Source: Zestosphaera tikiterensis
GTDB lineage: Archaea > Thermoproteota > Thermoprotei_A > Sulfolobales > NBVN01
DNA: 32,000 nucleotides
Direction of reading: 5' to 3'
Assembly: GCA_003056265.1 (NCBI GenBank)
Contig: NBVN01000004.1
Coordinates: forward strand, 60,001-92,000
Shown here: positions 1,205 through 31,615 of the stretch, piece after piece
How positions within the stretch are numbered: position 1 is the first letter of the stretch
How the letters are laid out: every line of letters starts with the position of its first letter
Notes under the pieces: model-generated
Seen by the model: the letters and a program-made list of their open reading frames with translations, nothing else
What the model was told of the DNA's origin: nothing
The model's database searches: none
Position numbers and translations under genes: made by a program

Positions 1205-1210
1205 GCTGGT

Positions 1211-1955: not shown

Positions 1956-2334
1956 TCCTTATGTATTAACTGAGGTGTTAACAACGCTACTTTTAATGGG
2001 TGCATTAATAGGGGGTATACTAGACGTTATAGCTGCTTTAGGAATGATTAGGTTTAAAGATTTCTACCTAAGACTACATGCTCTAACGGTTGGTGTTATT
2101 GGAGGTTCGTTCTATCCATTGATACTATTAGGACTGTACTCCATGATTAAACTGCCTTACCCAAGCAATTACTACGTAGGTGGTATAGCGTTAACTACGG
2201 CTTTCTTCATATTGATCACCGCCCCAGCTGGAAGTCACGCAATTGCTAGAGCTGCTCATAGATCTAAACACGTCCCAAAACCTGCGGTTGTAGATAGATT
2301 ACGTGAAGATAGGGAGTCCGGGGTGATGAATTAA
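1948..2334 (+). CDS. MnhG/MrpG-like membrane subunit
   Basis: ORF track gives 1906..2334. GTG 1948 overlaps the upstream stop (GTGATTGA). GMIRFKDFYLRLHALTVG matches the MnhG/PhaG family signature (R-x-x-D-x-Y-x-R-x-H). Confidence 0.7.
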   Translation: MIDPYVLTEVLTTLLLMGALIGGILDVIAALGMIRFKDFYLRLHALTVGVIGGSFYPLILLGLYSMIKLPYPSNYYVGGIALTTAFFILITAPAGSHAIARAAHRSKHVPKPAVVDRLREDRESGVMN

Positions 2335-2335
2335 A

Positions 2336-2608
2336 ATGAACTACATTACAGTTAATGATGTGATGCTGGCTGTTTTCCTAACTATAGCCCTTTTATTCAC
2401 GTATAAAACGTTAGTAGAGAAAGATCTCTTAAAAGCGGTTATATATTCGGCTGTGGAGTCGGCTTCATATACGGTTGTATTCACTTCATTATTCGCGCCA
2501 GATTTAGCGTTAGCTTACGTAGCGATAGGGGTTGGAGTTTACTCAGCCTTATTCTTACTCGTAATTTCCAGGACGGAAAGGTTTGAAGGAGGTGATTCCA
2601 ATGCCTGA
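2336..2608 (+). CDS. MbhD / MrpB-N-terminal-like (DUF4040-type) small membrane subunit
   Basis: 90 aa with three hydrophobic segments. LFAPDLALAYVAIGVG resembles the APDVALTE-type motif of this family. Confidence 0.5.
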   Translation: MNYITVNDVMLAVFLTIALLFTYKTLVEKDLLKAVIYSAVESASYTVVFTSLFAPDLALAYVAIGVGVYSALFLLVISRTERFEGGDSNA

Positions 2609-3425
2609 CTTAAGGACTTTCATAATAGCTTTATCGTTAATCACGGTTTCAGCTGTTTTAGGGTATGCTTTAATAACGTATGGCTTAGCCCCAGTAGCTA
2701 ATCAAGACTTAGTTAAACTCTCAAGGGTGTATTTAGGTACGGTATTCAATAAATCAAGTGTTTTGTGGGGTGCTTCACCTGAGGTAGTTACCTCCATCAT
2801 ATGGGATTATAGGGGTTTAGACACGGTTTACGAGACTACGGTGTTCTTCGTGGCTGTTATCTCAGCATTAACTTTATTTAGGAATGTTAAAATAACTCCT
2901 TCCAATACCGGCAGGGGCGTAGGAATGACTGTAATCGTGAAGACCGTGTCTAAAATTGTATTCATAGCCATACCCGCCGTAGCTGTATCTATAACTGTTC
3001 ACGGGCATTTAACTCCGGGAGGCGGATTTCAAGGGGGCTCCACGTTCTCTGTAGCGTCCTTATTAATGATTAGCGTCTTCTCACTTAACCTCGTAGTTGC
3101 TAGGGGATGGTCGAAGGAGAAGCTCTTAAGTATTAGAACTTTAGGGTTGCTTTCTGTAGGATTTGTAGCTTTCTCAACACCTTTAATCGCGTCTTTACTT
3201 GGTTTGAAAGGTTACTTAATGCAGAACTTAGAGAAGCCTTGGGCCCCTGTAGGTTGGCCTGCTGAAGTTAGTTTAGCAAGTGCTTCAAGCATTTTAGTTT
3301 CCGGAACTTTAATCGTGTTAAACATAGCTGAGTTTGTTGCGGTGTCAGCCGGCCTTTCATTAATATTTATCACGTTATCGTTACCTACGAACGTTTTAGA
3401 AGAGGGTGGGGGTGTGGCAAGGTGA
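2601..3425 (+). CDS. MnhB-domain membrane subunit (MbhE/F-like)
   Basis: ORF track gives 2583..3425. ATG 2601 has GGAGGTGA 5 nt upstream and overlaps the previous stop by 8 nt. Multi-TM protein. IWDYRGLDTVYETTVFFVAV matches the MnhB-domain motif (D-x-R-G-x-D-T-x-x-E). Confidence 0.65.
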   Translation: MPDLRTFIIALSLITVSAVLGYALITYGLAPVANQDLVKLSRVYLGTVFNKSSVLWGASPEVVTSIIWDYRGLDTVYETTVFFVAVISALTLFRNVKITPSNTGRGVGMTVIVKTVSKIVFIAIPAVAVSITVHGHLTPGGGFQGGSTFSVASLLMISVFSLNLVVARGWSKEKLLSIRTLGLLSVGFVAFSTPLIASLLGLKGYLMQNLEKPWAPVGWPAEVSLASASSILVSGTLIVLNIAEFVAVSAGLSLIFITLSLPTNVLEEGGGVAR

Positions 3426-3844
3426 AGGAGTTCTTATGGATGTATTTCTACGCAGTTTTATTTTTAACTATGTTGGTAGCTATATATGGTATAGCTGTAA
3501 AACCAAACATGCTTAAGAAGATTATAATGTTATCAATACTTTCGGACGCTGCTAACGTACTAGCTGTTGTTATGGGTTATAGAGCTAATGCTTCATCGCC
3601 TCCAGTGTACCCTGGGTATACCTTTGAAGTGGTGGATTACCCATCTAAAGACGCAATCGTCAGTTTCGTAAATTCAGCTGTTGACCCAATACCTCAGGTA
3701 TTGGTTGTAACCGCCATAGTGATAGGTCTTGCCGTGTTAGTTTTTCTATCCTCTATACTCATCTTAATCTACAGGAAATACAGAACTTTAGATGTTAGGC
3801 GATTAAGCTCTTTAATTAAAGAAGGGGGTGAATGGATTGAGTAA
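3422..3844 (+). CDS. MnhC/NuoK-like membrane subunit
   Basis: 140 aa with a GTGA start/stop overlap. DPIPQVLVVTAIVIGLAV matches the conserved DP-x-PQAL-x-LTAIVI region of MnhC/NuoK-like subunits. Confidence 0.6.
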   Translation: MKEFLWMYFYAVLFLTMLVAIYGIAVKPNMLKKIIMLSILSDAANVLAVVMGYRANASSPPVYPGYTFEVVDYPSKDAIVSFVNSAVDPIPQVLVVTAIVIGLAVLVFLSSILILIYRKYRTLDVRRLSSLIKEGGEWIE

Positions 3845-4355
3845 AGAAGGGGGAGGTTTAGGCAGGGTTTTCGTAGTAGCGGGTTTCGTATTTATGATTT
3901 ACGTAGTTTTCACAGGTGCTTTAACATTAGTGGATTTAATCGTAGGGTTTTCTACAGCTATTGTGGTTGGGGTATTAAGTAGCGACTTAGTAGTGAAGAA
4001 CTCGTCCAAAGCTTTCGAGTTGAGAAGGTGGGTTTACCTCCTATTCTATACCTTAAAATACCTTACAGTCTACGAGTTTAAAGCTCATTTAGACGTTGTG
4101 AAGAGGATTTTATCTCCGAAGCTACCAGTTAATCCAGCTATAGTTAGAGTTCCTTACGAGGTTGACGACGAGTACGCTGTAACCACTATAGCGAATTCTA
4201 TAACCAACACCCCCGGAACTGTTGTAGTAGATATAGACGTCGTTAGGAAGGTTATGTACGTTCATTGGATTGACGCTAAAGCTGTGGAAGACTTTAAAGC
4301 GAGGGAATATATCTCTGAGGACTTTGAAAAATACGCTACGAAGATTTTTGGGTGA
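3828..4355 (+). CDS. MnhE/MrpE-like subunit
   Basis: 175 aa. N-terminal TM helices are followed by a soluble domain. SITNTPGTVVVDID matches the MnhE family T-x-T-P-G-T signature. The start could be GTG 3828 or TTG 3837. Confidence 0.7.
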   Translation: MNGLSKEGGGLGRVFVVAGFVFMIYVVFTGALTLVDLIVGFSTAIVVGVLSSDLVVKNSSKAFELRRWVYLLFYTLKYLTVYEFKAHLDVVKRILSPKLPVNPAIVRVPYEVDDEYAVTTIANSITNTPGTVVVDIDVVRKVMYVHWIDAKAVEDFKAREYISEDFEKYATKIFG

Positions 4356-4726
4356 TATGCATGAATGAACTGCAGCTCACAGTTGACATATATGCTTTGG
4401 TCATCACCACACTAACTCTAGTGAACGCAGGTGCTGTTTATATGATCTTCTATGAGATGTTCAAGAGGTTCTATGGAGCTAAACTTAAGTTTGAAACGCC
4501 TGTCAAGAATATGATGACGCTATGCGGTATGGAAGTTACAGATGAGGTTAAGCATTTAGTGCCTGTTTCGGAGATTATGGTCTTTACATTTAGGAAGGCC
4601 TTCAAGCACATTACAGAGAGCTTGACGTCAGAATTTGAAAGTAAGGTACTTAGGGATTGGTTCTTCTATGCTTTGATAATCTTAACGGCACTCATAGTTT
4701 TATCCCTTATAATGGGGTGGTATTAA
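4352..4726 (+). CDS. Hypothetical two-TM protein inside the Mbx-like operon (possible accessory subunit)
   Basis: 124 aa. It is translationally coupled at both ends (GTGA overlap at 4352-4355, TAATG overlap at 4724-4728). Hydrophobic helices at both termini flank a charged, probably amphipathic helical middle. I recognise no family motif. Confidence 0.45.
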   Translation: MICMNELQLTVDIYALVITTLTLVNAGAVYMIFYEMFKRFYGAKLKFETPVKNMMTLCGMEVTDEVKHLVPVSEIMVFTFRKAFKHITESLTSEFESKVLRDWFFYALIILTALIVLSLIMGWY

Positions 4727-5733
4727 TGACGGATTTAAACCTCGGGATAGTGTTGGTTTCGGAGGTTTTGATATATCCAGGGCTTATGTTTTTAGTAGCA
4801 ACTATAATATTCACGCAGTGGTTATGGAGGAAAATAGCTGCTAGGTTAGGCTTTAGAAGAGGGCCCATGAAGACAGGCCCTGCTGGGGTTTTACAGCCTA
4901 TGGCAGACTTACTCAAACTTCTATCTAAGGAGGAAGTTAGAACAGCCCTCTCATCTAAAAGATTGCCTGCGTTAATAGCACCCCTAGGGATTGGAGCGTT
5001 GTCTACGGTTCTTCTAACCACACCCTTAGCCCCACTACCCATATGGTCACCTTTCGATTCTTTAGTGGTGCTTTACCTCATATTATGGGCTACAGTTTCA
5101 ATTGTGATATTAGCTCTTTCAACGCCTAACCCCTACACAAACATAGGCGTTGGAAGGTATCTAGCGTTTATAGTAGCTGCTGAACCGCCGTTCTTCATAT
5201 CTGTGTTGGTACCTATAATACTCGCTAGTAGGTATTATAGCGACGTAAATTATTCGATATATAAGACTAGCCTCTACTCAAGCAGTTTATGGGGTCTTAA
5301 CCCATTAACTGCGACGCTTATGTTATTATCTGCTTTCTCCGGTTTTATCTCTATGATGGCTGTAATGAATATAAAACCTTTTGACGCGGCTGAAGCGGAA
5401 ACTGAAATCTACTGGGGTATATTCACAGAATTTGGAGGTCCTAGACTAGCCTTAGGTATGTTCATATCATTTGCTGAAAGAGTTGTACTGCCGCTTATCT
5501 ATACGTTTCTTTTCCTAGGGGGTTCTTCACCATTCACCTTCACCGATAACTACCTAGCGTCATTGATTACTACACTGATTAAGTTCTTCGTTATTTTCTC
5601 TATATTAGCTATAATAGATACTTTAATGCCTAGGTTTAGACCCGATCAAGCCGTAAGGTTCTTAATTAAATACGCCTTAACTACAGCGGTAATAGCTTTA
5701 ATAGCCTCAATAACTTTAACGTTTATCTACTGA
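4726..5733 (+). CDS. NuoH/MbhM-like membrane subunit
   Basis: ORF track gives 4657..5733. ATG 4726 overlaps the upstream TAA. FRRGPMKTGPAGVLQPMADLLKLLSKEE matches the NuoH signature (R-x-GP-x-x-x-G-x-x-G-x-LQ-x-x-AD-x-x-K). The protein is polytopic. Confidence 0.8.
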   Translation: MTDLNLGIVLVSEVLIYPGLMFLVATIIFTQWLWRKIAARLGFRRGPMKTGPAGVLQPMADLLKLLSKEEVRTALSSKRLPALIAPLGIGALSTVLLTTPLAPLPIWSPFDSLVVLYLILWATVSIVILALSTPNPYTNIGVGRYLAFIVAAEPPFFISVLVPIILASRYYSDVNYSIYKTSLYSSSLWGLNPLTATLMLLSAFSGFISMMAVMNIKPFDAAEAETEIYWGIFTEFGGPRLALGMFISFAERVVLPLIYTFLFLGGSSPFTFTDNYLASLITTLIKFFVIFSILAIIDTLMPRFRPDQAVRFLIKYALTTAVIALIASITLTFIY

Positions 5734-11575: not shown

Positions 11576-12052
11576 ATGGCTGAAAGCGCGTTTAAGCACA
11601 TAGTTAGGATCGCTGGCGTTGATGTAGAGGGGGATGTCTTACTTCCTTACGGGTTAGCTAAGATTAAAGGTATTGGATACCATACAGGGTTAGCCATAGC
11701 TAGGATCTTAGGTTTGAATCCATATATGCGTGTAGGATATTTAAGCGAGTCCGACGTGAAAAGAATTGAGGATGTTATACATAACCCCAGCAAATACGGC
11801 ATTCCTCCCTGGTATCTAAACAGACGTAAAGACTACAAAACAGGTGAAGATAAGCACCTGATAGGTGCTGACTTAATATTCGAGGTTAGGGAGGATATAG
11901 ATAGAGAAATAAAGACGAGGAGTTGGAGGGGTATTAGACATCAGTTAGGTCTTAAAGTTAGGGGTCAGAGAACGCATACTACCGGTAGGATAGGGCCGGT
12001 TGTAGGCGTCACTAAAGGTAAAGCTCAACAACAGCAACAAAAGAAGGAGTGA
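11576..12052 (+). CDS. rps13: 30S ribosomal protein S13 (uS13)
   Basis: FKHIVRIAGVDVEG...GIGYHTGLAI...RGIRHQLGLKVRGQRT is typical uS13. It is the first gene of the conserved S13-S4-S11-RpoD cluster. Confidence 0.95.
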   Translation: MAESAFKHIVRIAGVDVEGDVLLPYGLAKIKGIGYHTGLAIARILGLNPYMRVGYLSESDVKRIEDVIHNPSKYGIPPWYLNRRKDYKTGEDKHLIGADLIFEVREDIDREIKTRSWRGIRHQLGLKVRGQRTHTTGRIGPVVGVTKGKAQQQQQKKE

Positions 12053-12062
12053 GGGGTAAGTT

Positions 12063-12605
12063 ATGGGAGATCCTAAGAAACCTAGGAAAAAGTGGGAAAG
12101 GCCTGGTCACCCGTGGATTAAAGAAAGGCTTCTAGAAGAAATGGAGTATGTAGGTAAGTACGGGTTAAGAAATAAAAGGGAGTTATGGAATGCGCAAACG
12201 CTCTTAAGGCAGATAAGAAATAAGGCTAAAGCCTTATTAGCTCTTCCACCGGAGGAGCGAGCGGTTAGGGAAGCAGCACTTTCAGCGAAACTCTACAAGA
12301 TGGGCATACTTAACGTTGAACACGGCACTATAGACAACATATTAGGTTTAACAATTGATGATATCCTACAGAGAAGACTTCAAACCATAGTTTACCGTAA
12401 AGGCTTAGCGAGAACAATCCACGAGGCTAGGCAATTAATCGTTCATAGACATATAGCCATAGGCGGTAAGGTAGTTAACTCACCCGGTTATTTAGTAAGT
12501 AGAGATGAAGAAAACCTTATAGACTTCGCATACAACTCACCGTTTAGAAATAGGTTAAAACAGCAGGCGGAGGAGGGCTTTATCTCCGAAGCAAGTCAGA
12601 CTTAA
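12063..12605 (+). CDS. rps4: 30S ribosomal protein S4 (uS4)
   Basis: The N-terminus is [17 protein letters not shown], and an S4 RNA-binding domain follows ([30 protein letters not shown]). Confidence 0.95.
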
Positions 12606-12619
12606 GGAGGTAGGTTCAT

Positions 12620-13021
12620 ATGGCGTTCACATCTAGAGAGCTTAAGTGGGGTGTGGCCCACATCTACAGCTCCTTCAATAACACCATAGTCCACATAACT
12701 GACTTAAGCGGTGCTGAGACCGTAGTAAGAATGTCTGGGGGTATGGTCGTAAGAGCCGATAGGGAGAAACCCTCCCCATACGTAGCTATGTTGATAGCCT
12801 ATAGAGCTGCTCAGAAAGCTATGGATAAAGGGATTACAGCCATTCATATAAAAGTTCGAGGTCCCGGTGGTCACGGCTCTAAAATACCCGGTCCTGGGGC
12901 TCAGGCAGCTATAAGAGCGTTAGCTAGGACAGGCTTTATCATAGGACGTATAGAGGACGTAACGCCAATACCTCATGACACTACCAGAAGGCCTGGCGGT
13001 AGGAGAGGTAGGAGAGTCTAA
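12620..13021 (+). CDS. rps11: 30S ribosomal protein S11 (uS11)
   Basis: [21 protein letters not shown]...IKVRGPGG...[15 protein letters not shown]...DVTPIPHD is typical uS11. Confidence 0.95.
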
Positions 13022-13033
13022 GGTGTTTTCTTC

Positions 13034-13876
13034 ATGGGGAAATTCGCAGTTGAGGTTATCGAGAAGGATGAGAAGACGGTCAAGCTTAAGTTTAAAGGCG
13101 TCCCTCTTCAAATACTCAACGCTTTAAGAAGAGCTGCGTTAGAGTACGTACCCACAATGGCTGTAGACCTAGTTGTTTTTAGAGATAACACCAGCGTCTT
13201 ACATGATGAGATAATAGCGCATAGGCTGGGTTTAATACCGCTTAAATCCGATGAAGCTTTAAACAAGTATAAATCACCTGAAGAATGTGTTGACGTTAAA
13301 CCTGAGGAGAGCTTAGACTGCTATGCCCACTTAACGTTGGAGGCTTCAACAGGCCCTGACGAAGTTAAGGATATTTATTCAGGGGATTTAAAACCCGTTA
13401 CAGACCCTAAGGTTAGGCCTGCCTACGATAGGATACCTATAGTTAGGTTAGGTCCTAGGCAGTCTATAGCGTTAGACGCTTACGCAAGGCTTGGTAGGGG
13501 AGTTGAGCACATTAAATGGTCGCCGGCAACCATCTCAACAGTAACTTACTTAGCTCAAATAAATGTAGACGTAAGTAAATGCAACCTATGCGGTAAGTGT
13601 GTGGAGGTTTGTCCTCGGGAAGCTCTAGCAATTGAAGGAAACGTATTGAAAACATATGAAGATAGGTGCATTATCTGTAGGCAATGCGTTAGAGTCTGCC
13701 CTACAGAAGCTATAGACGTAACTCATAAGGAGGATGAGTACATACTCACTATAGAGTCTTCAGGAGCTTTAAGGCCTGAGAGAATTGTTTTTGAAGCTTT
13801 GAAAATTGTAGCTAGCAAGCTAGATATGCTTTTAAGTAGGCTTGAATTAATTGTTAAGGCTGAGGTGAGGGGTTAG
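13034..13876 (+). CDS. rpoD: DNA-directed RNA polymerase subunit D (Rpo3) with ferredoxin-like Fe-S domain
   Basis: LNALRRAALEYVPTMAVD and HDEIIAHRLGLIPL are alpha-like subunit motifs. An inserted domain carries CNLCGKCVEVCP and CIICRQCVRVCP (13580-13699). Confidence 0.9.
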   Translation: MGKFAVEVIEKDEKTVKLKFKGVPLQILNALRRAALEYVPTMAVDLVVFRDNTSVLHDEIIAHRLGLIPLKSDEALNKYKSPEECVDVKPEESLDCYAHLTLEASTGPDEVKDIYSGDLKPVTDPKVRPAYDRIPIVRLGPRQSIALDAYARLGRGVEHIKWSPATISTVTYLAQINVDVSKCNLCGKCVEVCPREALAIEGNVLKTYEDRCIICRQCVRVCPTEAIDVTHKEDEYILTIESSGALRPERIVFEALKIVASKLDMLLSRLELIVKAEVRG

Positions 13877-13877
13877 G

Positions 13878-14240
13878 TTGAGGAGGACTGGCCCGACTAA
13901 TATAAGGTTAAGGAAGTTGATAAGTATGCTTAAGAAGAAAGCCAACGAGTCTAACGCAGCTATATGGGATTACGTTGCTGAACTCCTATCTCTCCCTTCA
14001 AGAAGGAGGGTAGCTGTTAACATATCTAAGATTCAGAGGTATGCCAACGACGGAGACGTAATCGTCGTTCCAGGTAAGGTTTTAGGTGCTGGAGTTTTAA
14101 ATAAGAAAGTTACCGTAGCAGCGGTTACGTTTTCCATGAAGGCTTTAGAGAAGATAAACCTAGCTGGCGGTAGGGTTCTTACAATTGAAGAACTCTTAAG
14201 TCAAAATCCTAAAGGAAGTGGTGTTAAGGTGATAACATGA
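13878..14240 (+). CDS. rpl18e: 50S ribosomal protein L18e (eL18)
   Basis: TTG start. RRTGPTNIRLRKLI...VVPGKVLGAG...V is typical L18e, in the conserved position after rpoD. Confidence 0.9.
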   Translation: MRRTGPTNIRLRKLISMLKKKANESNAAIWDYVAELLSLPSRRRVAVNISKIQRYANDGDVIVVPGKVLGAGVLNKKVTVAAVTFSMKALEKINLAGGRVLTIEELLSQNPKGSGVKVIT

Positions 14241-14698
14241 GTTCAGAACCTCAGGTAGCAGGTAAGGAAAGCGTAATCGTCATCGACGCTGAAGGATCTG
14301 TTTTAGGTAGATTAGCTACGTACGTAGCTAGGATGCTTAAGGAAGGTTATAAAGTGTATGTTGTTAATGTGGAGAAAGCTGTGATCAGCGGAGATAAAAA
14401 CAGAGTCATTGAAGGTTATAAGGTATGGTTAAAGATAAAAACTTTAAGAAATCCTGAGAGATCCCCTAAAAGACCTAGAAATCCCATAGCTATATTCAAA
14501 TACGCCGTGAGGGGTATGTTACCTAAAGACTTTACTAAAGGTAGGGCTAGACTTAAGAACCTGAAGGTGTATGTAGGTATTCCGAAGGAGCTTGAGGGTA
14601 GGGACATGGTTAGGCTTGTTTCGGCTTCAAGCTCTAAATTAAAGGGTGAGTTTATCACTGTGGCTGAAGTAGCTAAAGCTCTTGGGTGGAGTCCATGA
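14237..14698 (+). CDS. rpl13: 50S ribosomal protein L13 (uL13)
   Basis: ATGA overlap with the rpl18e stop. VIDAEGSVLGRLATYVARML...VVNVEKAVISG is typical uL13. Confidence 0.9.
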   Translation: MSSEPQVAGKESVIVIDAEGSVLGRLATYVARMLKEGYKVYVVNVEKAVISGDKNRVIEGYKVWLKIKTLRNPERSPKRPRNPIAIFKYAVRGMLPKDFTKGRARLKNLKVYVGIPKELEGRDMVRLVSASSSKLKGEFITVAEVAKALGWSP

Positions 14699-15126
14699 GT
14701 GCTAAAGAGTTAAGCCTTCAAACAAAGAAGGTAGTGCTGTCTTCAGGCAAGAGAAAAACGGCCATAGCGAGAGCGGTAGTTAAGGAAGGTAAAGGTAGGG
14801 TGTGGGTTAACGGAGTCCCTATAGAGATATGGCCTGTGGAGATGGCCAGGCTTAAAATGATGGAACCCCTACTCTTAGCTGGTGAGGACATAAGAAATAA
14901 AGTCGATATTAGGGTTGAAGTACGCGGCGGTGGTTTCATGGCTCAAGCCGAAGCTGTTAGAACAGCTATAGCTAGAGGTTTAGTAGCTTTTACAGGGAGT
15001 GAGGAGTTGAAGAAGATATATAAAGAGTATTCTAGAACCATGCTTGCTGGAGATCCTAGAAGGACAGAGCCTGAGAAATGGATGCGTTACTCAGCCAGGA
15101 GGTTTAGGCAGAAATCATACAGGTGA
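14695..15126 (+). CDS. rps9: 30S ribosomal protein S9 (uS9)
   Basis: ORF track gives 14686..15126. ATG 14695 gives an ATGA overlap with the rpl13 stop. GKRKTAIARAVVKEGKG...GGGFMAQAEAVRTAIARGL...DPRRTEPEK...RRFRQKSYR is typical uS9. Confidence 0.9.
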   Translation: MSAKELSLQTKKVVLSSGKRKTAIARAVVKEGKGRVWVNGVPIEIWPVEMARLKMMEPLLLAGEDIRNKVDIRVEVRGGGFMAQAEAVRTAIARGLVAFTGSEELKKIYKEYSRTMLAGDPRRTEPEKWMRYSARRFRQKSYR

Positions 15127-15132
15127 GACTCG

Positions 15133-15336
15133 ATGGTTATATTTCCCGTTAGATGCTTCACGTGCGGTTCCGTAATAGGGGATAAGTGGGAGTACTTCGT
15201 TAATGAGGTTAAGAAGGGAAGATCTATGAAGGAAGTCTTGGACGAGTTAGGTATTAAGAGATACTGTTGCAGGAGGATGTTTATTTCACACGTCGACTTA
15301 ATCGATGAGTTAGTAAGGTATTCAAGGAAGGTGTGA
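15133..15336 (+). CDS. rpoN: DNA-directed RNA polymerase subunit N (Rpo10)
   Basis: [20 protein letters not shown]...[14 protein letters not shown] is the canonical RpoN/Rpb10 zinc-bundle sequence. Confidence 0.95.
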
Positions 15337-15971
15337 TTGATATGACCGAAGGAGTTGACTATGAGAAAGGAGTGGGTGTAGAGCTTTTAGTTCCTATAAA
15401 CGTGTATTTAGAGGCTGGAGTTCATATAGGGACTTACATGTGTACAAAACATATGAAGAAGTTCGTCTTTAGGCAGAGACCCGACGGCCCTTACGTTTTG
15501 GACGTTAGGAAAATAGATGAAAGGATTAGAATAGCGGCTAAATTCATAGCTAGGTTTAAACCTGAGGCTGTGTTAGCTGTCTCAGCTAGGCAATACGGTT
15601 ACGTACCTGTGCAGAAATTCGCTGAGGTAACCGGAGGTAAGGTAGTGGTAGGTAGGTTTATCCCAGGCACTTTAACTAACCCATGGCTGAACAACTACAT
15701 TGAACCAGACATATTAATAGTTACGGATCCGAGGGTAGACCAGCAAGCTATTCTCGAAGCCTCTAGAGTGGGTATACCTGTAGTAGCTATAGCAAGCACA
15801 GACGCGAAAACAAACAACGTAGACTTGATAATCCCTGGAAACAATAAAGGCAGGAAATCCCTAGCTGTGATTTACTGGCTTTTAGCAAGGCAAGTACTGA
15901 GGGAAAGAGGAGTTATACCGCCTAACGGAGATTTAAGCGTAGGTCCAGACGCGTTTGAAACTAAAGTTTAA
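15333..15971 (+). CDS. rps2: 30S ribosomal protein S2 (uS2)
   Basis: LEAGVHIGT...[17 protein letters not shown]...[31 protein letters not shown] is typical archaeal uS2. The start could be GTG 15333 or ATG 15342. Confidence 0.9.
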
Positions 15972-16048
15972 ATCAGCTTAAGTAAAGATATTAAGCTAGC
16001 ACTATTTCTCCCTAGATTTCCATTCCAGTCATTTTGTATTGCTTTCGT

Positions 16049-16145
16049 GGTTTTATTTGGGGAGTTCCGCCTCCGCCTAGAGGGCTTGCTTAGCTCATCC
16101 CGTAGGTTCATGGGCGGTTGTCGAGGGTAACGGCACAACCATCCC
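16049..16145 (-). repeat. GC-rich intergenic element, copy A (candidate structured RNA / old repeat); strand is motif orientation only
   Basis: The minus strand reads ...GGTTGTgccgttaccctcgACAACCgcccatgaaCCTAcGGGATGAGCTAAGCAAGCCctcTAGGCGGAGGCGGAACtccccAAATAAAAC. This shares GGGATGAG, AAGCC, GCGGAGG..GAAC and an A-rich tail with the copies at 16366, 20084 and 31451. There is a 6-bp stem at 16116-16121/16135-16140. No ORF is present. Confidence 0.3.
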
Positions 16146-16365
16146 TATCTATCTAGACTTGGAGCAACGTCTACTTACTTTTAACCTTATCTTATACAGG
16201 TTGCCATGTATGTGTTAGAAAAATATGTAAATGCTACTATTTAACTTTATAATAGTTGAGGGTTGGTTTGATGATTCGATTAAGAGACGAAGACAAGGGT
16301 GAGATTCAACTAAATGGGGCTCCTACCTTAGCTTGAGGTGTTTAGTGGAGGGTTGAGGAGGGTTT

Positions 16366-16500
16366 GAGCTATGAAGCTAAGCTATCGAAATGCGAGGGTA
16401 GAGTAAAGAATAGAGGTGATGAAGGCAAGTAATTGAAAATACGATGAAGCCGAAACCCTTATAAGGGCTTAGGCGAAGAGGGGAGGAAAGTAAATATAGA
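16366..16500 (+). repeat. Purine-rich intergenic element, copy A2, inverted relative to copy A
   Basis: It contains ATGAAGCTAAGC (16371-16382; matches copy A ATGAGCTAAGC), GTGATGAAGG (16416-16425), CGATGAAGCC (16442-16451; identical 9-mer GGCTTCATC at 20117-20125), the palindrome CCCTTATAAGGG and GGGGAGGAAAGTAAAT. No ORF is present. Confidence 0.3.
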
Positions 16501-16565
16501 GATGTTAAATATAATATGTACGAAGAAAATTAGAGAAGTGGTAAGTCTTTAAGAGGTGCTATATA

Positions 16566-17417
16566 GTGGTAGTTAGAAACCCAGCTGTGGCCGGGTATTT
16601 TTACGAGGGTAGAGCGCAAGCTCTTTTAAAGAGGTTAGAGTGGGCTTTCACACATCCCTTAGGTCCCGGAGCTAAGCCGGTTACGGCTAGTGTAAGAACA
16701 CGCGTAAGCGTTGGTTTCATAGTACCTCACGCTGGATATATGTACAGTGGTCCTGTAGCTGCTCACGCATATTTTAAAATGGCTTTAGAAGGGGTTCCGC
16801 AAACCGTCGTTATTTTAGGGCCTAACCATACGGGGTTTGGTGAGGCTGTGTCTGTATGGGATGAAGGTGTTTGGAGTACCCCACTCGGTAATGTAAGTGT
16901 TGATGAAGAGCTTGCTTCGGAAATCATAAAGAACTCTAGCTTTGCTAGACCGGATAAAACAGCACATTATGAGGAACACTCAATTGAGGTTCAGCTGCCT
17001 TTCCTACAGTATATATTCAAAGATTTTAAGATAGTGCCTATAGCTTTAATGTATCAAGTACCTGAAATAGCTAAAGACCTTTCCACGTCTATACTTAAGT
17101 CAGTACAGAAACTCTCACGGGACGTAGTTCTCATAGCTTCGTCGGACATGTCGCATTATGAAAGGCATGAAGTCGCCGTAGCTAAAGACAATCTCGCTTT
17201 AAGTAGGATATTAATGTTAGATCCTGAAGGTCTTTACGACGCTGTTATTAGCAACGACATAAGTATGTGTGGTGTTGGACCTGTAATGACGCTACTTTAC
17301 TATGCTAAGCAGTTAAACGCTTCTAAAGCTGAAGTGCTTAAATATGCTACTTCAGGTGACGTTACAGGCGATAAAAGCCAGGTGGTAGGCTACGCTTCAG
17401 TAAGGATTCACTTCTAA
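16566..17417 (+). CDS. MEMO1-family protein (AmmeMemoRadiSam system protein B-like)
   Basis: GTG start. RNPAVAGYFYEG, IVPHAGYMYSGPVAAHAY, LGPNHTG, EHSIEVQLPFLQ and SSDMSHY are the Memo/UPF0103 signatures. Confidence 0.85.
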   Translation: MVVRNPAVAGYFYEGRAQALLKRLEWAFTHPLGPGAKPVTASVRTRVSVGFIVPHAGYMYSGPVAAHAYFKMALEGVPQTVVILGPNHTGFGEAVSVWDEGVWSTPLGNVSVDEELASEIIKNSSFARPDKTAHYEEHSIEVQLPFLQYIFKDFKIVPIALMYQVPEIAKDLSTSILKSVQKLSRDVVLIASSDMSHYERHEVAVAKDNLALSRILMLDPEGLYDAVISNDISMCGVGPVMTLLYYAKQLNASKAEVLKYATSGDVTGDKSQVVGYASVRIHF

Positions 17418-17441
17418 CATTTAAAGGAAAGGATTTAGAAG

Positions 17442-18197
17442 GTGTTATCCTTGATTAAAGAAAGCCATGAATGGATACCTCTATTCCACATACCAATACC
17501 TAAGAAACATAACCCTATGGTTTTAATCTCAACTCAGAGGAGAGTTTCTATACGTTTAGAAACTTTAAAGGAAAGCGAAGATCTACGGATTGAAGGCCTT
17601 GAAGCATACCCAAAAGTAAAGGAGTTAATATCTTCCTTTATTAGCAAACTTTTTGAAGAAGTCTCTATGAAGGTAGGATTGGAGATACTGGTCAACACCC
17701 CCGAAGGTGTGCATGAAGGTTTTCTCTACGCATTCATAACAAACGCTGTCGTAGAGCTTTTAAGCGGGGAATTTAATGAAGATCTTATTAAGGCTGCAAC
17801 AGTCATAGACTCCTTACTTAACCTAGAGGATTTCGTATACGGTTTAAGAAGAACGTATTTAGCAAGTGAACCATTTATATGGAGGGTAGGGGACGATCCC
17901 ATATCTATCAATAGGAAATTAACAGCATACGTTGACGCGATTTTCAAGCAGCAAATGGGCTCTTCTACGGAAATGCAATTAACGGATTTAATAACACATT
18001 TATCGGGTTTAACGACCATACATATCTTTAGAGCCTTACGCGATGGTAGTGAGTTAAGGGATTTAATCCGTGTGTATAACGGCATATGGTACATCCTCTA
18101 TGAGGTGATCCCGCCTAAAATCGCGGAAAATGAACGTTACTTCATCGTATATCCAGACATAGGTAACGTAGTTATCGCTGAGGTGAGATTCCATTAG
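17442..18197 (+). CDS. Hypothetical protein; possible degenerate GHMP-kinase-fold protein (mevalonate-kinase position)
   Basis: 251 aa. VGLEILVNTPEGVHEGFLYAFITNAVVELLSGEFNEDLI aligns by eye with GHMP motif II (i-x-S-x-iP-x-GSGLGSSAA-x-x-vA), but with all Gly/Ser replaced. No GEH motif I and no GAGGGG motif III are present. It lies immediately upstream of ipk and fni. Confidence 0.3.
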   Translation: MLSLIKESHEWIPLFHIPIPKKHNPMVLISTQRRVSIRLETLKESEDLRIEGLEAYPKVKELISSFISKLFEEVSMKVGLEILVNTPEGVHEGFLYAFITNAVVELLSGEFNEDLIKAATVIDSLLNLEDFVYGLRRTYLASEPFIWRVGDDPISINRKLTAYVDAIFKQQMGSSTEMQLTDLITHLSGLTTIHIFRALRDGSELRDLIRVYNGIWYILYEVIPPKIAENERYFIVYPDIGNVVIAEVRFH

Positions 18198-18207
18198 CGG
18201 TCATGCG

Positions 18208-18978
18208 TTGAAGATAATTAAGTTTGGAGGTTCCGTTATAACATCTAAAAATGATCCACTATCTTTAAACTCCAACGTAATAATTGAGTTAGCAGAAGAG
18301 ATCCGTAGATATTATTTAGAGTTTAAAGACAGGGTTAAGTTAGTTATCGTGCATGGGGGTGGGTCATACGGACATCCGCTAGTTATAGAATGTTTAAAAC
18401 GTTTCAGCACGTTAACGCTAGAGTGCTTTGCTAAGGTTTCATACTTCATGAACTTACTTAACATGTACGTTCTTGAAGCTTTATTAAGTAATGAAGTACC
18501 GGTAGTTGGAATACCTCCTAAAGCTATTTGTAAAGTTTCAGAAACGTTGGAATGCGATTTAACGACTGTAAATCAACTGATGGAGGCTGGTTTAATCCCA
18601 GTACTCTATGGAGATGTAGTTCTCTACAACAACGGATTTAAAGTGTTGTCAGGTGATGACATCGTTTGGATGATCGCTAAGGAATTCAACGCTAACGCAG
18701 TAATATTCTTAACAGACGTGGATGGCGTCTACGATAGGAATCCCAAATCTTTTAAAGACGCTACTTTACTAACGCATGTAAGCTTAGACGAGGTTTTAAA
18801 CCGTGTTGAGTTTTGGGGGGTTAAGGACGTTACTGGGGGAATGCTTGAGAAGCTAAGGAAGGCTAAAGAGCTTAACGTTAGGGGGTTAAGGGTCTACGTT
18901 GTGAATGGTTATAAACGGGGGAACCTTTATAATGCGTTACGTGAGAGTAATGTTTTAGGGTCTGTAATATGGGTTTAG
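18208..18978 (+). CDS. ipk: Isopentenyl phosphate kinase (amino-acid-kinase fold)
   Basis: TTG start. KIIKFGGSVITSK, VIVHGGGSYGH, SGDDIV, LTDVDGVYDRNP and VTGGM are typical of archaeal IPK. The gene is adjacent to fni. Confidence 0.85.
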   Translation: MKIIKFGGSVITSKNDPLSLNSNVIIELAEEIRRYYLEFKDRVKLVIVHGGGSYGHPLVIECLKRFSTLTLECFAKVSYFMNLLNMYVLEALLSNEVPVVGIPPKAICKVSETLECDLTTVNQLMEAGLIPVLYGDVVLYNNGFKVLSGDDIVWMIAKEFNANAVIFLTDVDGVYDRNPKSFKDATLLTHVSLDEVLNRVEFWGVKDVTGGMLEKLRKAKELNVRGLRVYVVNGYKRGNLYNALRESNVLGSVIWV

Positions 18979-27274: not shown

Positions 27275-30097
27275 CTATTTCTTAGGCGGTAGTTGAAGTT
27301 TTCGCTCGAATTCCTTAATCTTTAGGAGAACGCTTAAGCCGAATTTCCTGTCTATGTTTTGCTGTTTTATCTTAATGATTTCTTTAATGAGTTCTAGAAT
27401 TTCCTGAGTTACTTCTGAAGGGAATTCCGTTAGTATTTCATTTATGTCGTCCTCGCTTGGATCTGTATAAAGCACATCTCCTTCGTCGAAATGCCTTCCA
27501 ACGAGCACATCTCCCTCAATCGATATAGCTACTTCCGAGCCTGTTTTAGCTTCGTTTAAAGCTTTACCTTTAAACTGTATTTGATGTATCTTGCCTAAGG
27601 GTTTGCCATCGCTTCTCATGATTCTATAGCCCGGCCTAATAACACCGCCTAAGACCCTAACCCCTACTATAGCTGGGTTACTTCTCCTAAAGACATAACC
27701 CGGTAGTACTTGAAACTTAGCTGGAAATACAGTTTTCTGAAGCTTTAACATCATCTCCTTAGATTTCTCCTCAGCAACCCACTTCTCATAACTTTCTATA
27801 AGTCTATATATTATATTATCGTAGAATATCTTCACACCTTCAGCTCGAGCTAGCTCCTCCACATCCGCTGGAGCTTTAACGTTGAAAAGAAGTATGACGC
27901 CTAAGTACCTATCCTCCTTAGCTACAACCGCAGCTTCAATCACTTCCCTCCTAGTTAGTGGACCTACATCAGCAAGTCTGACTGGGATATTACGTTTCTC
28001 AAGCATTGATACTATAGCCTCAAGAGTTCCTATGGTGTCCGCCTTAACTACAACTCCCTTAATGTCTTTTGTAAACCTTACTTGAACTAACTCCTCCGCC
28101 ACTTTCCTTACGTACTCATCTATTTTAGACTCGTCTTCAACGGCGTATAGGGGTGCTCCGGCGACAGCCCTTTCAAGGTTTGGAGCACTTATTCTAACTC
28201 CAGCAGCAGCTACTACCTCATTAACATTCATAAAAGCGGACTCGCTCACCACTCTAATCTCCTCTAAGGGTTTAGGCATTAGCAATGCCCTTACCTTAGT
28301 TACTAAAGGCCCTTCCAACCCACCCACCACTATAGTATCGCCCTTCCTAAGCACCCCATCATATATGACGGTATCAATCACGTGTCCGATACCGGGTAAT
28401 TCCTTAACCTCAAGAACCACTCCTCTAGCGGGGCCCGACGTAAACGCTATCCTACCGGTTAAGTACTTCTGGATGATTCCAGCTAGAACCGCTAGGAGCT
28501 CCGGAATACCCTCTCCAGTTTTCGCCGATACTGGGACTATAGCTATAGCTTTCCTAAAGTCTTTAATTCTATCGAATCTTTCCGCAGGTATTTTAAGGTT
28601 GCTTAACTGCCCTACAATACTGTAGATTCTTCTTTCCAACTCCTCAACAGTTTGAGGTGTTTGATTCTTGATGCTGAGCGTGAAGGGAGCGTTCGGCATG
28701 GGTTTCCATCCACGTATCTTATCTATCTTATTAGCTGCCACAACGAAAGGTACCTTCCTACTTAAGAGTATCTCTAGAGACTCAACGGTTTGTTTCTCAA
28801 CACCCTCCATAACGTCAACCACTAAAATAGCGAAATCGGCAGCACTACCACCACGCCTTCTAAGGTTAGAAAAAGCTTCATGGCCTGGTGTGTCTATAAA
28901 TAACAACCCTGGAATTGAAAGCTTTACGGGGAATAACTGCTTTAAAGGCTCGGTTAGTTTCTCGATAACTGATAAAGGAACTAAGCTAGCGCCAACATGC
29001 TGTGTCATCTCACCAGGTTCTTTACTAACTACGGCCGTACCTCTAATCTTATCTAGGAGGGTCGTGTTATGGACGAGGATCCCATTAGCTATGAAAGATT
29101 GAGATCCAGGCACCGTCAAATCATATACGTAACCATCATACTCTAAAACACGTATATCGGTAATCCTAGCTAACTTTAAGCTATTTTGGCTTGATGAATC
29201 ATAACTTACGTTATGACTCTCATCTGCTATAGCGATCGTAAGGTCGTACTCACTCAGGTTTAAATCAATGCGTGTTTTAAAGCCTACTCTAGAGAACAAC
29301 AGCTTGTACTTTACGGCATCGTAATAATTGTTGAAGCGCAGCTTAACTTCTTTTGATGATTTTTTAATGCCTAAATGCTTAATCATTGCTTCAGCGAAAA
29401 CTTTAACGTATTCCTTAGGCAAACTGAAAATCACGTCTTCAGGGTTTTTATATGTTTGTAGAAGATTCTTTAAAACTTTAAGTACGTGTTTCTCTTTAAA
29501 CTCTTCTTTAAGCCACGTATCAAGTACGTGAACGTTATTTAAGTATTTAAAAACCTTAAGTACTAAAGCATCAGCGAAATTACGGAAAGCCTCTAGCTCG
29601 TTACCAGCTAAGTAAGTCGTCAGTTTAAGGAAATCCTCATCCGTGGTGAACTTCCTTAAAGCTTTCATTGAGTTAATAGGTTCAGGAATGGAGTTAATTA
29701 CGTAGATTTCATCACCTCTGCTTAAATGATCTGCTGGGAGCCAGCCATGACCTGTTAGAAATGGATGCTCTGGAGTTACAGCTACTTTGCTTCCATCCTC
29801 AAGTAATACCTCATAAATGTAACCTGAGTATCTTACTCTCCATGCCTGAGTAGCTTCAACGCGGTTTAAGAGGTTGTGGTTGGACACTTCTAGGGAATAA
29901 ACATCATAACTTGTATTCTCCACTTCGTAAACACCCGACTTAAACGTTAAGGTTCCGTTGAAAAGATCCCGTATTGGCTTAAGCCTACCATCAGCTAATA
30001 AGACCAACTCTTCAGGCAGTAAGCATTTTCCATGATCTACATGACCTAAGACGACAACTATCGGCGAACGTAACTTAACCTCACTTCTTTCAGTCAT
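27275..30097 (-). CDS. infB: Translation initiation factor aIF5B (IF2-like GTPase), intein-containing precursor
   Basis: The G1 motif GHVDHGK is split from TTLLDKIRG by a 320-aa insert. DTPGHEAF (G3), NKID (G4) and downstream aIF5B domains are intact. 940 aa minus 320 aa gives 620 aa, the normal aIF5B size. Confidence 0.9.
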   Translation of the reverse strand: MTERSEVKLRSPIVVVLGHVDHGKCLLPEELVLLADGRLKPIRDLFNGTLTFKSGVYEVENTSYDVYSLEVSNHNLLNRVEATQAWRVRYSGYIYEVLLEDGSKVAVTPEHPFLTGHGWLPADHLSRGDEIYVINSIPEPINSMKALRKFTTDEDFLKLTTYLAGNELEAFRNFADALVLKVFKYLNNVHVLDTWLKEEFKEKHVLKVLKNLLQTYKNPEDVIFSLPKEYVKVFAEAMIKHLGIKKSSKEVKLRFNNYYDAVKYKLLFSRVGFKTRIDLNLSEYDLTIAIADESHNVSYDSSSQNSLKLARITDIRVLEYDGYVYDLTVPGSQSFIANGILVHNTTLLDKIRGTAVVSKEPGEMTQHVGASLVPLSVIEKLTEPLKQLFPVKLSIPGLLFIDTPGHEAFSNLRRRGGSAADFAILVVDVMEGVEKQTVESLEILLSRKVPFVVAANKIDKIRGWKPMPNAPFTLSIKNQTPQTVEELERRIYSIVGQLSNLKIPAERFDRIKDFRKAIAIVPVSAKTGEGIPELLAVLAGIIQKYLTGRIAFTSGPARGVVLEVKELPGIGHVIDTVIYDGVLRKGDTIVVGGLEGPLVTKVRALLMPKPLEEIRVVSESAFMNVNEVVAAAGVRISAPNLERAVAGAPLYAVEDESKIDEYVRKVAEELVQVRFTKDIKGVVVKADTIGTLEAIVSMLEKRNIPVRLADVGPLTRREVIEAAVVAKEDRYLGVILLFNVKAPADVEELARAEGVKIFYDNIIYRLIESYEKWVAEEKSKEMMLKLQKTVFPAKFQVLPGYVFRRSNPAIVGVRVLGGVIRPGYRIMRSDGKPLGKIHQIQFKGKALNEAKTGSEVAISIEGDVLVGRHFDEGDVLYTDPSEDDINEILTEFPSEVTQEILELIKEIIKIKQQNIDRKFGLSVLLKIKEFERKLQLPPKK
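29066..30025 (-). mobile_element. Intein inserted in the P-loop of aIF5B
   Basis: The insert starts with Cys25 (TGC, 30025-30023) after GHVDHGK. Block A is CLLPEELVLLADG and block B is VTPEHPF. It ends ...VYDLTVPGSQSFIANGILVHN (Asn344, 29068-29066) followed by Thr+1. The central ~170 aa has only a weak LAGLIDADG-like string (TYLAGNELEA). The segment looks more AT-rich than the flanking exteins. Confidence 0.85.
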
Positions 30098-30183: not shown

Positions 30184-31269
30184 TTAGCTGATTATGGGAT
30201 ATCTTAGGAGGGCTATAACACCAGCAAACGTCTTTTTAAGCCATTCATATTCAGGTATTTCTGAATTAATAACTAAGACCTCAGCACCTTTCTCCTCCGC
30301 TTTCTTACTTAATTCCTCAATTCTAGGATGATCCTCAACGATGATTAAATGTCTAACCGCACCCATGTTTAATGCTTCAATTATTTCCTTCTCGCCATAC
30401 GTCACATATCCGTCGTCTTTAGCTAAGTGCGTCTTCACCTCCTCGAGGAGGTCGTAAGTCTTTATGTAGGTATGTTGTTTAAGTAGGTCTTTAGCCCTAA
30501 CCACCAATTCTCTAAGTCCTGGAAATCCTTGCGAACTCACGTCGATTAACTCAGGTATTATCAGAGATTTTAACCTATAATCTATGGAGTCGTTTTTCAC
30601 GAAATCGTTCTTTACGTAACCCGGCCCCCCTACTAATATCCCTTTAAGCCTTCCCTGTTCTAAGTACGGTAGGAAGTAATTGTTCATTTTCTCAGCAACG
30701 CTTTTATGGAATTCATCGGTTAACTCCTCTATTATTCTATCGTATCTTCGTTGAGACCAACCACCTTTAGAGTGTTTACCGGGGATATACCCTTCAATCT
30801 CATCTAAGACTAGTATGCTATTCCCTTTAAGCAAGCCTATCGTTGCCTCATCTCTTTCTATAATGACTAAACCATATACATTAGATTCCTCAATCATATC
30901 CTCAAGAAACTCTGTATGAAAGTGTTTATCAGTTCTATAGAAAAATACGTTGACAGGCTCCGGAGGCTCTAAAACCAACGTTATGATCTCACCGGTTTTG
31001 TCGTTCTCACCTGAGAATATCACCAACCCGTTAGGCGGGGTTTTAGGTATTTTAAGCAGTCTATCTATCGCAGCTTCTAAAGCAGTCTGAACTTTACTCC
31101 TAGTCTGTTTAAGCTTTATGTTTTCAGTTATTGAAAGTTCCTGCCTTAAGGTGTTTACAACATCAGCTATAGGTCTTCCAGGCGGTATGTAAAGACTTAA
31201 CAACGTCGTAGCATGTGCTTCCCAAGTCTTAAGAGACTTCACTATCCTCTTAAGCTCTTCTTTACTCAC
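30184..31269 (-). CDS. aRF1 (eRF1-family) homologue with non-canonical NIKS, YxCxxxF and GGQ motifs
   Basis: GTG start. The N-terminus LKTWEAHATTLLSLYIPPGRPI and overall collinearity are typical aRF1. The motif positions read ITENIKLKQTR, FFYRTDKHF and PGKHSKGGWSQRRYDR (Trp171 codon TGG at 30759-30757). Confidence 0.8.
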   Translation of the reverse strand: MSKEELKRIVKSLKTWEAHATTLLSLYIPPGRPIADVVNTLRQELSITENIKLKQTRSKVQTALEAAIDRLLKIPKTPPNGLVIFSGENDKTGEIITLVLEPPEPVNVFFYRTDKHFHTEFLEDMIEESNVYGLVIIERDEATIGLLKGNSILVLDEIEGYIPGKHSKGGWSQRRYDRIIEELTDEFHKSVAEKMNNYFLPYLEQGRLKGILVGGPGYVKNDFVKNDSIDYRLKSLIIPELIDVSSQGFPGLRELVVRAKDLLKQHTYIKTYDLLEEVKTHLAKDDGYVTYGEKEIIEALNMGAVRHLIIVEDHPRIEELSKKAEEKGAEVLVINSEIPEYEWLKKTFAGVIALLRYPIIS

Positions 31270-31450
31270 TCTATACTCGCTAAATATGACCCACCTAAAA
31301 CATAAGATTTTCAGGGAGTAATAAGATTAACACTATCCTTTTGTTTCTAGGCTCTAGCTTCACCGCTTCAGCCATCATCACCACCTGTTTGAGGCTCCGC
31401 CTTTTAAGGTAGGATGAATGTTTTTAAGTTTTTCTTGTTTAATGTTTTTG

Positions 31451-31615
31451 GTGTTGGGTGTGGGTAACCGTAGCTTGGGATGAGTCCCACACCTTCCCGG
31501 TGCTGGCGGCGGGAACTGATGGATGATGCACTCCCTGTGAGGGGCTTCAGAAAGGTGATGGAAGCCCTAGGGGGAGAACCCCTGTTAAAACAATAGGGGC
31601 CGTCAGCCTACTGAA
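31451..31615 (+). repeat. GC-rich intergenic element, copy C (candidate structured RNA); strand is motif orientation only
   Basis: Three local hairpins are present: GGTGTGGG/CCCACACC (31457-31464 / 31486-31493, loop contains GGGATGAG), GGGCTTC/GAAGCCC (31542-31548 / 31561-31567, loop AGAAAGGTGATG) and GGGG-AGAA-CCCC (31571-31582). It shares GGGATGAG, GGCGGCGGGAAC, GATGGAAGCC, GGGGAGAAC and TTAAAAC with copies A, A2 and B. No ORF with a start codon is present. Confidence 0.35.

Follow-up and report, generated by a model that had tools for sequence, protein, structure and literature searches.

The window analysed here, a stretch of 32,000 nucleotides (forward-strand positions 60,001 to 92,000 of contig NBVN01000004.1) from the archaeon Zestosphaera tikiterensis, contains on its minus strand the gene for the class-I peptide chain release factor aRF1. 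The open reading frame (ORF) is intact, with a GTG start and a TAA stop, and its product of 361 residues shows 100% identity to Z. tikiterensis PUA32221.1, which is encoded on a 454,821-bp contig. At the tip of the catalytic loop the third residue of the GGQ motif is a tryptophan. GGQ is common to the unrelated bacterial and archaeo-eukaryotic release factors, where it is called universally conserved and essential (PMC2613156, PMC6144793, PMC5799190), and it is likewise termed universally conserved in e/aRF1 (PMC2613156; PMC6144793). Our findings establish the GGW substitution as real and conserved under purifying selection, and suggest that the window aRF1 most likely still releases peptides. 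The features of the gene are as follows:

30184..31269, minus strand: aRF1 gene, 361 aa, class-I peptide chain release factor (ORF, Pfam, TIGR03676)
30892..31248, minus strand: N domain (aa 8-126), stop-codon recognition (PF03463, E=1.4e-16)
31111..31122, minus strand: NIKL loop (aa 50-53), the crenarchaeal form of NIKS
30919..30939, minus strand: YRTDKHF (aa 111-117), the crenarchaeal form of YxCxxxF
30478..30876, minus strand: M domain (aa 132-264), which bears the catalytic loop (PF03464, E=2e-39)
30751..30765, minus strand: catalytic loop tip GGWSQ (aa 169-173), with W171 at the Gln of GGQ and Q173 as the +2 Gln (alignment)
30757..30759, minus strand: TGG, the codon of W171
30193..30465, minus strand: C domain (aa 269-359), predicted to bind aEF1-alpha (PF03465, E=6.9e-21)
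30199-30213, minus strand: ALLRY, a GILRY-type motif (aa 353-357) in the C domain

All three Pfam domains (eRF1_1, eRF1_2 and eRF1_3) are matched above their gathering cut-offs and in the order N-M-C, and the NCBIfam equivalog model of aRF1, TIGR03676, scores 428 bits against a cut-off of 234.7, which bears out the collinearity with aRF1 claimed for this ORF in the preliminary description. Models of related families were also compared. The Pelota model TIGR00111 gives 95.3 bits against a cut-off of 177.65, with a match from residue 86 on, and the NCBIfam model of acVLRF1 (NF041024) gives 30.4 bits against a cut-off of 125, too little for membership of that family. A weak match to PF18859 (VLRF1; 45.6 bits) overlaps the far stronger match to eRF1_2 (135 bits), and a weak match to PF18854 (baeRF/Balon-type; 38 bits) overlaps eRF1_2 likewise. 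The AlphaFold 2 (AF2) model of the protein, with a mean predicted local distance difference test score (pLDDT) of 88.3, finds its best Foldseek matches in 3agk and 3vmf_B at template-modelling (TM) scores of 0.70-0.78; in it the loop, residues 160-172, lies flexibly between a strand (151-159) and a helix (173-204). In the C domain, W343 is invariant among 42 aligned crenarchaeal aRF1s and aligns with Trp354 of the Aeropyrum pernix factor, a residue implicated in aEF1-alpha binding (PMC3467058). The protein is best regarded as the ordinary orthologous class-I release factor of Zestosphaera. We nevertheless file it as a variant of the aRF1 family, not as a typical member, because one defining feature, the Gln of GGQ, fails.

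The register of the substitution follows from the alignment to A. pernix aRF1 (3agk), in which W171 coincides with the Gln of the GGQ motif, in a stretch free of gaps within 150 residues (MGGQSQRRY in A. pernix, KGGWSQRRY in the window). The reading of this position as GGW is thus upheld. The peptide KHSKGGWSQRRYDR is present in the window aRF1, with GGWSQ at 30751-30765. Among the same 42 crenarchaeal sequences G169, G170, S172, Q173, R174 and R175 are invariant, as are the loop flanks (PGKHxxGG-SQRR); both glycines and the length of the loop are conserved around the substituted residue.

All three functional signatures of the protein had been described as altered. This stands for GGW and for neither of the others, because NIKL and YxTxxxF are the normal crenarchaeal forms. 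NIKL is found in 104 of the 120 closest homologue clusters and YRTDKxF in every one of the 90 among those 120 in which the pattern matched, and A. pernix aRF1 possesses both; indeed, Kobayashi et al. 2012 write of ‘NIKL for A. pernix aRF1’ (PMC3467058). The genetic code is likewise unremarkable. All three stop codons terminate ORFs in the window (TAA 17, TGA 12 and TAG 7; n=36), in agreement with the preliminary description, and TGG also encodes W16 and W343, both family-conserved tryptophans, so that TGG is to be read as ordinary Trp. A genetic-code change or reassignment of TGG is thereby ruled out.

Conservation of GGW was assessed in the best 120 protein clusters of closest relatives, formed at 90% identity. 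These comprise 38 GGW clusters, at 63-100% identity to the query, 81 GGQ clusters and one GGK singleton. All 22 further members drawn from six of the GGW clusters carry GGW wherever the loop is covered, among them four Z. tikiterensis-like variants from JGI, ENA and Logan that differ from the query by 3-25 aa. At the DNA level TGG is fixed in seven diverged loci, in which the neighbouring Ser, Lys/Arg, Gly, Gln and Arg codons drift synonymously; the GC content of these loci ranges from 41% to 59%. Over 5,065 nt a Logan contig (L023) matches the window at 100% identity and for that reason does not count as an independent population, so that independence rests on the other cluster members. With GGW conserved across relatives, sequencing error is rejected as the source of the motif.

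Carriers of GGW are annotated as Zestosphaera, Zestomicrobium tamdykulense, Desulfurococcaceae, ‘Sulfolobales archaeon’ and ‘Desulfurococcales archaeon ex4484_204’. The Zestomicrobium metagenome-assembled genome (MAG) is 98.7% complete (PMC11467010). A GGW aRF1 from a ‘Sulfolobales archaeon’ MAG, MDW8082320.1 (P0488), lies on a contig of 1,408,415 bp that is probably a closed genome. The lone GGK sequence (P0056) belongs to the GGQ sister clade, where it sits amid near-identical GGQ sequences; it probably represents an error, or else a polymorphism of low frequency (CAG to AAG).

Conservation of the remainder of the protein is not relaxed, the values for the N, M and C domains being 0.77, 0.72 and 0.59 within the GGW clade versus 0.72, 0.68 and 0.53 in the GGQ group. 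W171 is the sole clade-diagnostic column in the crenarchaeal alignment; no compensatory change was found elsewhere in aRF1, and no second diagnostic column exists in the crenarchaeal GGW clade. A further search with a 40-aa profile, in which Trp was forced into the loops of several lineages, returned fragments of 70 aa or less and no GGW among them.

The gene neighbourhood identifies the locus. In the window, a FeoB-like C terminus is followed by aRF1, aIF5B (with an intein) and NDK, then at intervals by L7Ae, GluRS and an ORF of DUF2118 size, and by polyprenyl synthase and type-2 isopentenyl-diphosphate (IPP) isomerase. A common array of more than 15 kb, FeoB-aRF1-aIF5B-NDK-(L24e)-S28e-L7Ae-GluRS-DUF2118-polyprenyl synthase-FMN_dh, is represented in the window and in loci L027, L034 and L029. 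The gene order of the window recurs in locus L027, from a GGW cluster with 69% identity, and the array is collinear with the window in the nearest GGQ relatives, P0040 and P0494 (loci L033 and L034). In the GGQ relative P0033 (locus L029) the same genes are partly rearranged and FeoB is not seen, with the tandem of aRF1 and aIF5B kept; this tandem also occurs in a further GGQ relative (L005). We infer that the array neighbours are single-copy housekeeping genes, and on that ground take the GGW and GGQ genes to be states of one orthologous locus. Judged by gene order, the window GGW aRF1 and the GGQ aRF1 of the nearest relatives are positional orthologues, and the former is not a side paralogue.

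Phylogenetic analysis, by single-gene neighbour-joining trees, is consistent with this. With all columns included, the GGW sequences form one group nested among the crenarchaeal aRF1s with no long stem, and the Gln-to-Trp change is placed in the ancestor of a family-level Desulfurococcales-type group comprising Zestosphaera, Zestomicrobium and many hot-spring MAGs. Removal of column 171 tells against a strict reading of this group: the exact W/Q split is then recovered in only 29/100 bootstraps, and the point estimate puts the GGQ cluster P0040 within the W group, although W alone, or W together with only P0040, forms a clade in 38/60 replicates. Strict monophyly was dropped accordingly, with P0040 as sister or nested, and because support declines without column 171 our claim is limited to a coherent group with no proven single origin; for a coherent lineage arising once, the trees offer moderate support. 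The suggestion of the preliminary description that the protein is a neofunctionalised paralogue finds no support in a positional orthologue with no long branch, W171 as its only diagnostic residue, and stop-reading and aEF1-alpha motifs retained. A patterned peptide scan of the genome collection, which is query-specific, blind to divergent paralogues and without a Z. tikiterensis record among its matches, yielded 22 loci spread over 22 records, one a complete genome and the others MAGs, with none of the records hit twice. The other branch of the earlier suggestion, that the factor would be a real puzzle if it were the only copy, is the one that the evidence favours, and the puzzle is far wider than the Zestosphaera genome.

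Loss of the glutamine recurs across the Archaea. An exhaustive HMMER search was made of 1.84 billion 50%-identity representatives, and the best 150 aRF1s were analysed. The GGQ position is occupied by a residue other than Gln in 24 of these 150 (11 W, 6 F, 4 M, 2 A and 1 E), which sit at approximately 12 separate places in the archaeal aRF1 tree. YxCxxxF is kept in 23 of the 24 and NIKS in 17, with a close variant in most others, and a GILRY-type motif is present in all those with an aligned C terminus. The only non-Gln case that appears degenerate is P0327, in which all three motifs are degraded (GGESA, EIKS and YxRxxxF) and which, unlike the W/F/M forms, looks like a decaying or divergent paralogue.

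When one non-Gln representative, P0245, served as the query, 115 of its 120 nearest clusters carried GGW. Named members of this clade are MAGs of Aenigmatarchaeota, Nanoarchaeota and Micrarchaeota (DPANN), with contigs of up to 555 and 665 kb, and two of the DPANN-clade GGW genes have ordinary housekeeping neighbourhoods. DPANN archaea are described as having reduced genomes (PMC11291902), and we consider a spare release factor unlikely there. Since the same change recurs in so many other archaea, Gln at the exact GGQ position appears not to be indispensable in nature.

The same loop is a site of insertion. Many archaeal aRF1s of 500-970 aa (P0242, P0249, P0254, P0267, P0271, P0281, P0298, P0321, P0332, P0333 and P0348) carry an intein directly after residue 3 of the motif, be it GGQ, GGW, GGF or GGM, as where GGW is followed by CVRSNSL, with the conserved Ser as the +1 extein residue. 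Because the insertion falls exactly after motif residue 3, the catalytic loop of aRF1 can be considered an intein homing site.

Loss of the canonical Gln is accompanied by an amide two or three residues downstream. For these counts the units are clusters at 50% or 90% identity and kinship is uncorrected. The pattern GG-X-S-Q, with Gln at +2, occurs in 21 of the 24 non-Gln representatives versus 28 of the 123 with GGQ (Fisher p=2.7e-9, without phylogenetic correction), and Gln or Asn at +2 or +3 in 23/24 versus 53/123. Within the DPANN clade GGW is followed by SQ (83 clusters), SAN (29) or SAS (1), placing an amide at +2 or +3 in 112 of the 113 intein-free GGW clusters. Five GGQ forms nested in this clade read GGQSAA or GGQSAQ and are apparent revertants that have lost the downstream amide pattern. 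Furthermore, the nearest GGQ relatives of many non-Gln lineages read GGQSA, and thus in many lineages the +2 Gln arises together with loss of the canonical Gln.

Earlier work on the motif bears on what such a loop could do. The glycines of GGQ adopt backbone angles that only glycine reaches (PMC5799190; PMC3467058), and the main-chain amide of the Gln is the catalytic contributor (PMC3467058). The Gln side chain performs a packing role, and its N5-methyl group makes additional van der Waals contacts, namely to U2506, A2451 and A2452 (PMC5799190). With catalysis assigned to the main-chain amide and the side chain to packing, it is unsafe to presume, as the preliminary description did, that a factor with GGW would occupy ribosomes and release no peptide. 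According to the title of reference B52 in PMC2613156, mutation of this Gln in human eRF1 leaves activity that is not abolished. A GGxSQ motif has been described in aVLRF-1 and acVLRF-1 by Burroughs and Aravind (PMC6514570).

On this basis we consider the window GGW aRF1 to be, more likely than not, a release factor that is active and whose catalytic loop is re-registered, with the amide relocated to Q173. The factor would be delivered by aEF1-alpha-GTP, its N domain would read all three stop codons by means of NIKL and YxTxxxF, and the loop K-G-G-W-S-Q-R-R would enter the peptidyl-transferase centre. There, both glycines, together with the main-chain NH at position 171, would perform catalytic positioning as they do in GGQ factors, while a bulky hydrophobic side chain (Trp here, Phe or Met elsewhere) would fill the rRNA pocket that normally packs N5-methyl-glutamine. 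Q173, two residues downstream, would then supply a carboxamide helping to order water. The resulting GG-X-S-Q loop would be re-registered in the manner described for VLRF1-type release-factor homologues. To a broader proposition we would give an even chance: that the sole release factor of several archaeal lineages, among them a family-level Desulfurococcales group that includes a cultured organism, and much of DPANN, terminates translation with GG-(W/F/M)-S-Q and an amide from +2 or +3, in a natural re-registration linking classical aRF1 to the GGxSQ loops of VLRF1/Vms1-type factors.

Several observations count against this reading of the window factor. Gln substitutions in bacterial RF1 and RF2 and in yeast eRF1 are reported to fail to complement in vivo. 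The covariation statistics ignore phylogeny, and one DPANN cluster, GGWSAS, is without a nearby amide. Confidence in the AF2 loop is low (mean pLDDT of approximately 59 for residues 161-170), and the model therefore gives no usable loop geometry. The +2 Gln is, moreover, already present in crenarchaeal GGQ forms, as GGQSQ, and indeed in all 120 closest clusters; because the GGQ forms have it too, it is in Crenarchaeota a permissive background at most and not compensatory, although its prior presence may have made the step from Gln to Trp permissible there. Some of these points suit an active factor in which the +2 Gln is irrelevant, a reading that we regard as unlikely without thinking it far-fetched. 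The GG backbone and the main-chain NH would suffice, W, F or M would replace the packing of (methyl-)Gln, and the association with SQ would be a historical or structural accident. Such an account draws on the bulky hydrophobic nature of nearly all the replacements (W, F or M in 21 of the 24), on the documented main-chain and packing roles (PMC3467058; PMC5799190), and on both the crenarchaeal GGQSQ forms and the GGWSAS cluster. It has difficulty with the constancy of the +2/+3 amide in the non-Gln state, among the representatives as in DPANN, and with the switching off of that pattern in the nested GGQ forms; an accident of this kind is hard to sustain across approximately 12 lineages.

A non-catalytic or regulatory factor, acting in the A site in the manner of Pelota or Balon by binding to stop codons or stalled ribosomes with no hydrolysis and leaving release to a second GGQ aRF1 or to an unrelated hydrolase, appears improbable, more so than an irrelevant +2 Gln. 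The canonical Gln is certainly absent from the window aRF1, and loss of the loop Gln has been equated with inactivity in Dom34 and most baeRF families (PMC6514570). The loops of those inactive families are degenerate, however (PMC6514570), whereas here neither the loop nor its length nor its Arg-rich flank varies, and the NIKS-, YxCxxxF- and GILRY-type motifs are retained across the non-Gln lineages. Orthology with the GGQ gene, the invariant loop and the DPANN distribution, where GGW dominates and an extra release factor would be unlikely, thus fit this reading poorly. The score below the Pelota cut-off, and a count of zero for second crenarchaeal-type aRF1s from GGW taxa among the top 120 matches, point the same way. 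That GGW stems from faulty sequencing or assembly at 30757-30759, or marks a copy resembling a pseudogene, has a negligible chance of being correct: the rarity of the motif is all that speaks for it, the match to L023 not being independent, and it is refuted by conservation across relatives, with GGW present in dozens of independent assemblies (NCBI, JGI, ENA and Logan) of diverged DNA, in an intact ORF under purifying selection in all three domains. The decaying copy that the preliminary description had envisaged, should the variant prove unconserved, is excluded with it. The orthologues that it had proposed to seek in related genomes and place in a tree were found, as the one coherent crenarchaeal group described above.

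Debate over the role of the GGQ Gln side chain and of its conserved N5-methylation has for two decades drawn on engineered mutants. The case described here would be a natural experiment run repeatedly, in which Trp, Phe or Met has taken the place of Gln in orthologous release factors that are unaltered in other respects, coupled to an amide two or three residues downstream. No report of a natural GGW, GGF or GGM aRF1 was found in the full-text literature searched, the coverage of which is incomplete, so that prior mention elsewhere is possible. If re-registration is true, the need for methylation by Mtq2 has probably been changed or removed. Neither Mtq2 nor Trm112 was found among the 30 window ORFs scanned against NCBIfam, all of them ordinary housekeeping genes, six ORFs at 14686-18978 lying outside the scan. 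There would be a practical consequence for annotation, since rules and ‘catalytically dead’ calls keyed to a literal GGQ would misjudge GGW, GGF and GGM factors. Zestosphaera tikiterensis NZ3(T), a described type strain and host of Nanoclepta according to the citation of St John et al. 2019 in PMC11467010, offers a tractable organism for the study of a GGW aRF1.

The gene directly downstream of aRF1 carries an intein of its own:

27275..30097, minus strand: aIF5B/IF-2 gene with intein, 940 aa, directly downstream of aRF1 (TIGR00491, 722 bits)

Intein models match its product at residues 25-115 (N-terminal splicing region) and 323-345 (C-terminal region). The aIF5B of the GGW relative at locus L027 is also intein-bearing (974 aa), and those of the GGQ loci L029, L033 and L034 are intein-free, at 608-610 aa. 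In two of three otherwise identical MAG loci a TnpB/Cas12f-like gene (PF07282; 10984-12207, plus strand, in L025 and L026) is inserted downstream of the GGW aRF1, between RimK-like and thermosome genes; it is absent from the third (L024). Upstream of the window aRF1, in the spacer of approximately 500 nt between the FeoB-like end and aRF1, lies a GC-rich island (31450-31600; 57-61% against 41% for the window). It could be a structured RNA gene, though it gave no tRNA or Rfam match and weak fold z-scores (-1.8 and -1.4), and showed no similarity in related loci. The regions of the window at 86-5733 and 11576-14698 are ordinary core-genome context. Genes for an Mbx/Mrp-type membrane complex (homologues of NuoD, NuoI and NuoH; MnhB, C, E and G) lie on the left of the window, and its middle carries the S13-S4-S11-RpoD-L18e-L13 cluster, in which RpoD contains a ferredoxin-like 4Fe-4S segment at residues 170-240.

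Among characterized proteins the closest to the window factor is A. pernix aRF1 (3AGK; 3VMF with aEF1-alpha-GTP), which has the same three-domain fold, aligns at E=4.5e-126 over residues 2-359 of the window protein and shares NIKL, YRTDKxF, the loop context PGKHxxGG-SQRRY and the C-domain Trp; at the aligned position A. pernix aRF1 has GGQ (Gln182) and the window aRF1 GGW (Trp171). Classical a/eRF1 as modelled by TIGR03676 agrees with it in domain order, genomic role and loop length, and differs in possessing the Gln. With VLRF1/Vms1-type proteins the window aRF1 has in common the GGxSQ loop pattern, a resemblance of the loop only that confers no membership, and in contrast to VLRF1 it possesses a full stop-codon-reading N domain, an aEF1-alpha-binding C domain and the loop length of classical aRF1. 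Pelota/Dom34 and Balon/baeRF have the same M- and C-domain fold and likewise no Gln at the GGQ position. In Pelota/Dom34 and baeRF, however, both the entire conserved loop and the domain bearing NIKS/YxCxxxF are missing (PMC2613156; PMC6514570), whereas the window aRF1 differs by one residue. Pelota has an Sm-like N domain, where that of the window protein is eRF1_1 and its loop is invariant; the baeRF/Balon loop is degenerate and variable in length with the stop-codon motifs lost, where the window aRF1 keeps both loop and motifs. The laboratory Gln mutants of bacterial RF1 and RF2 and of human eRF1 alter the same single site. They were engineered, whereas GGW is natural, fixed, recurrent and coupled to a neighbouring amide.

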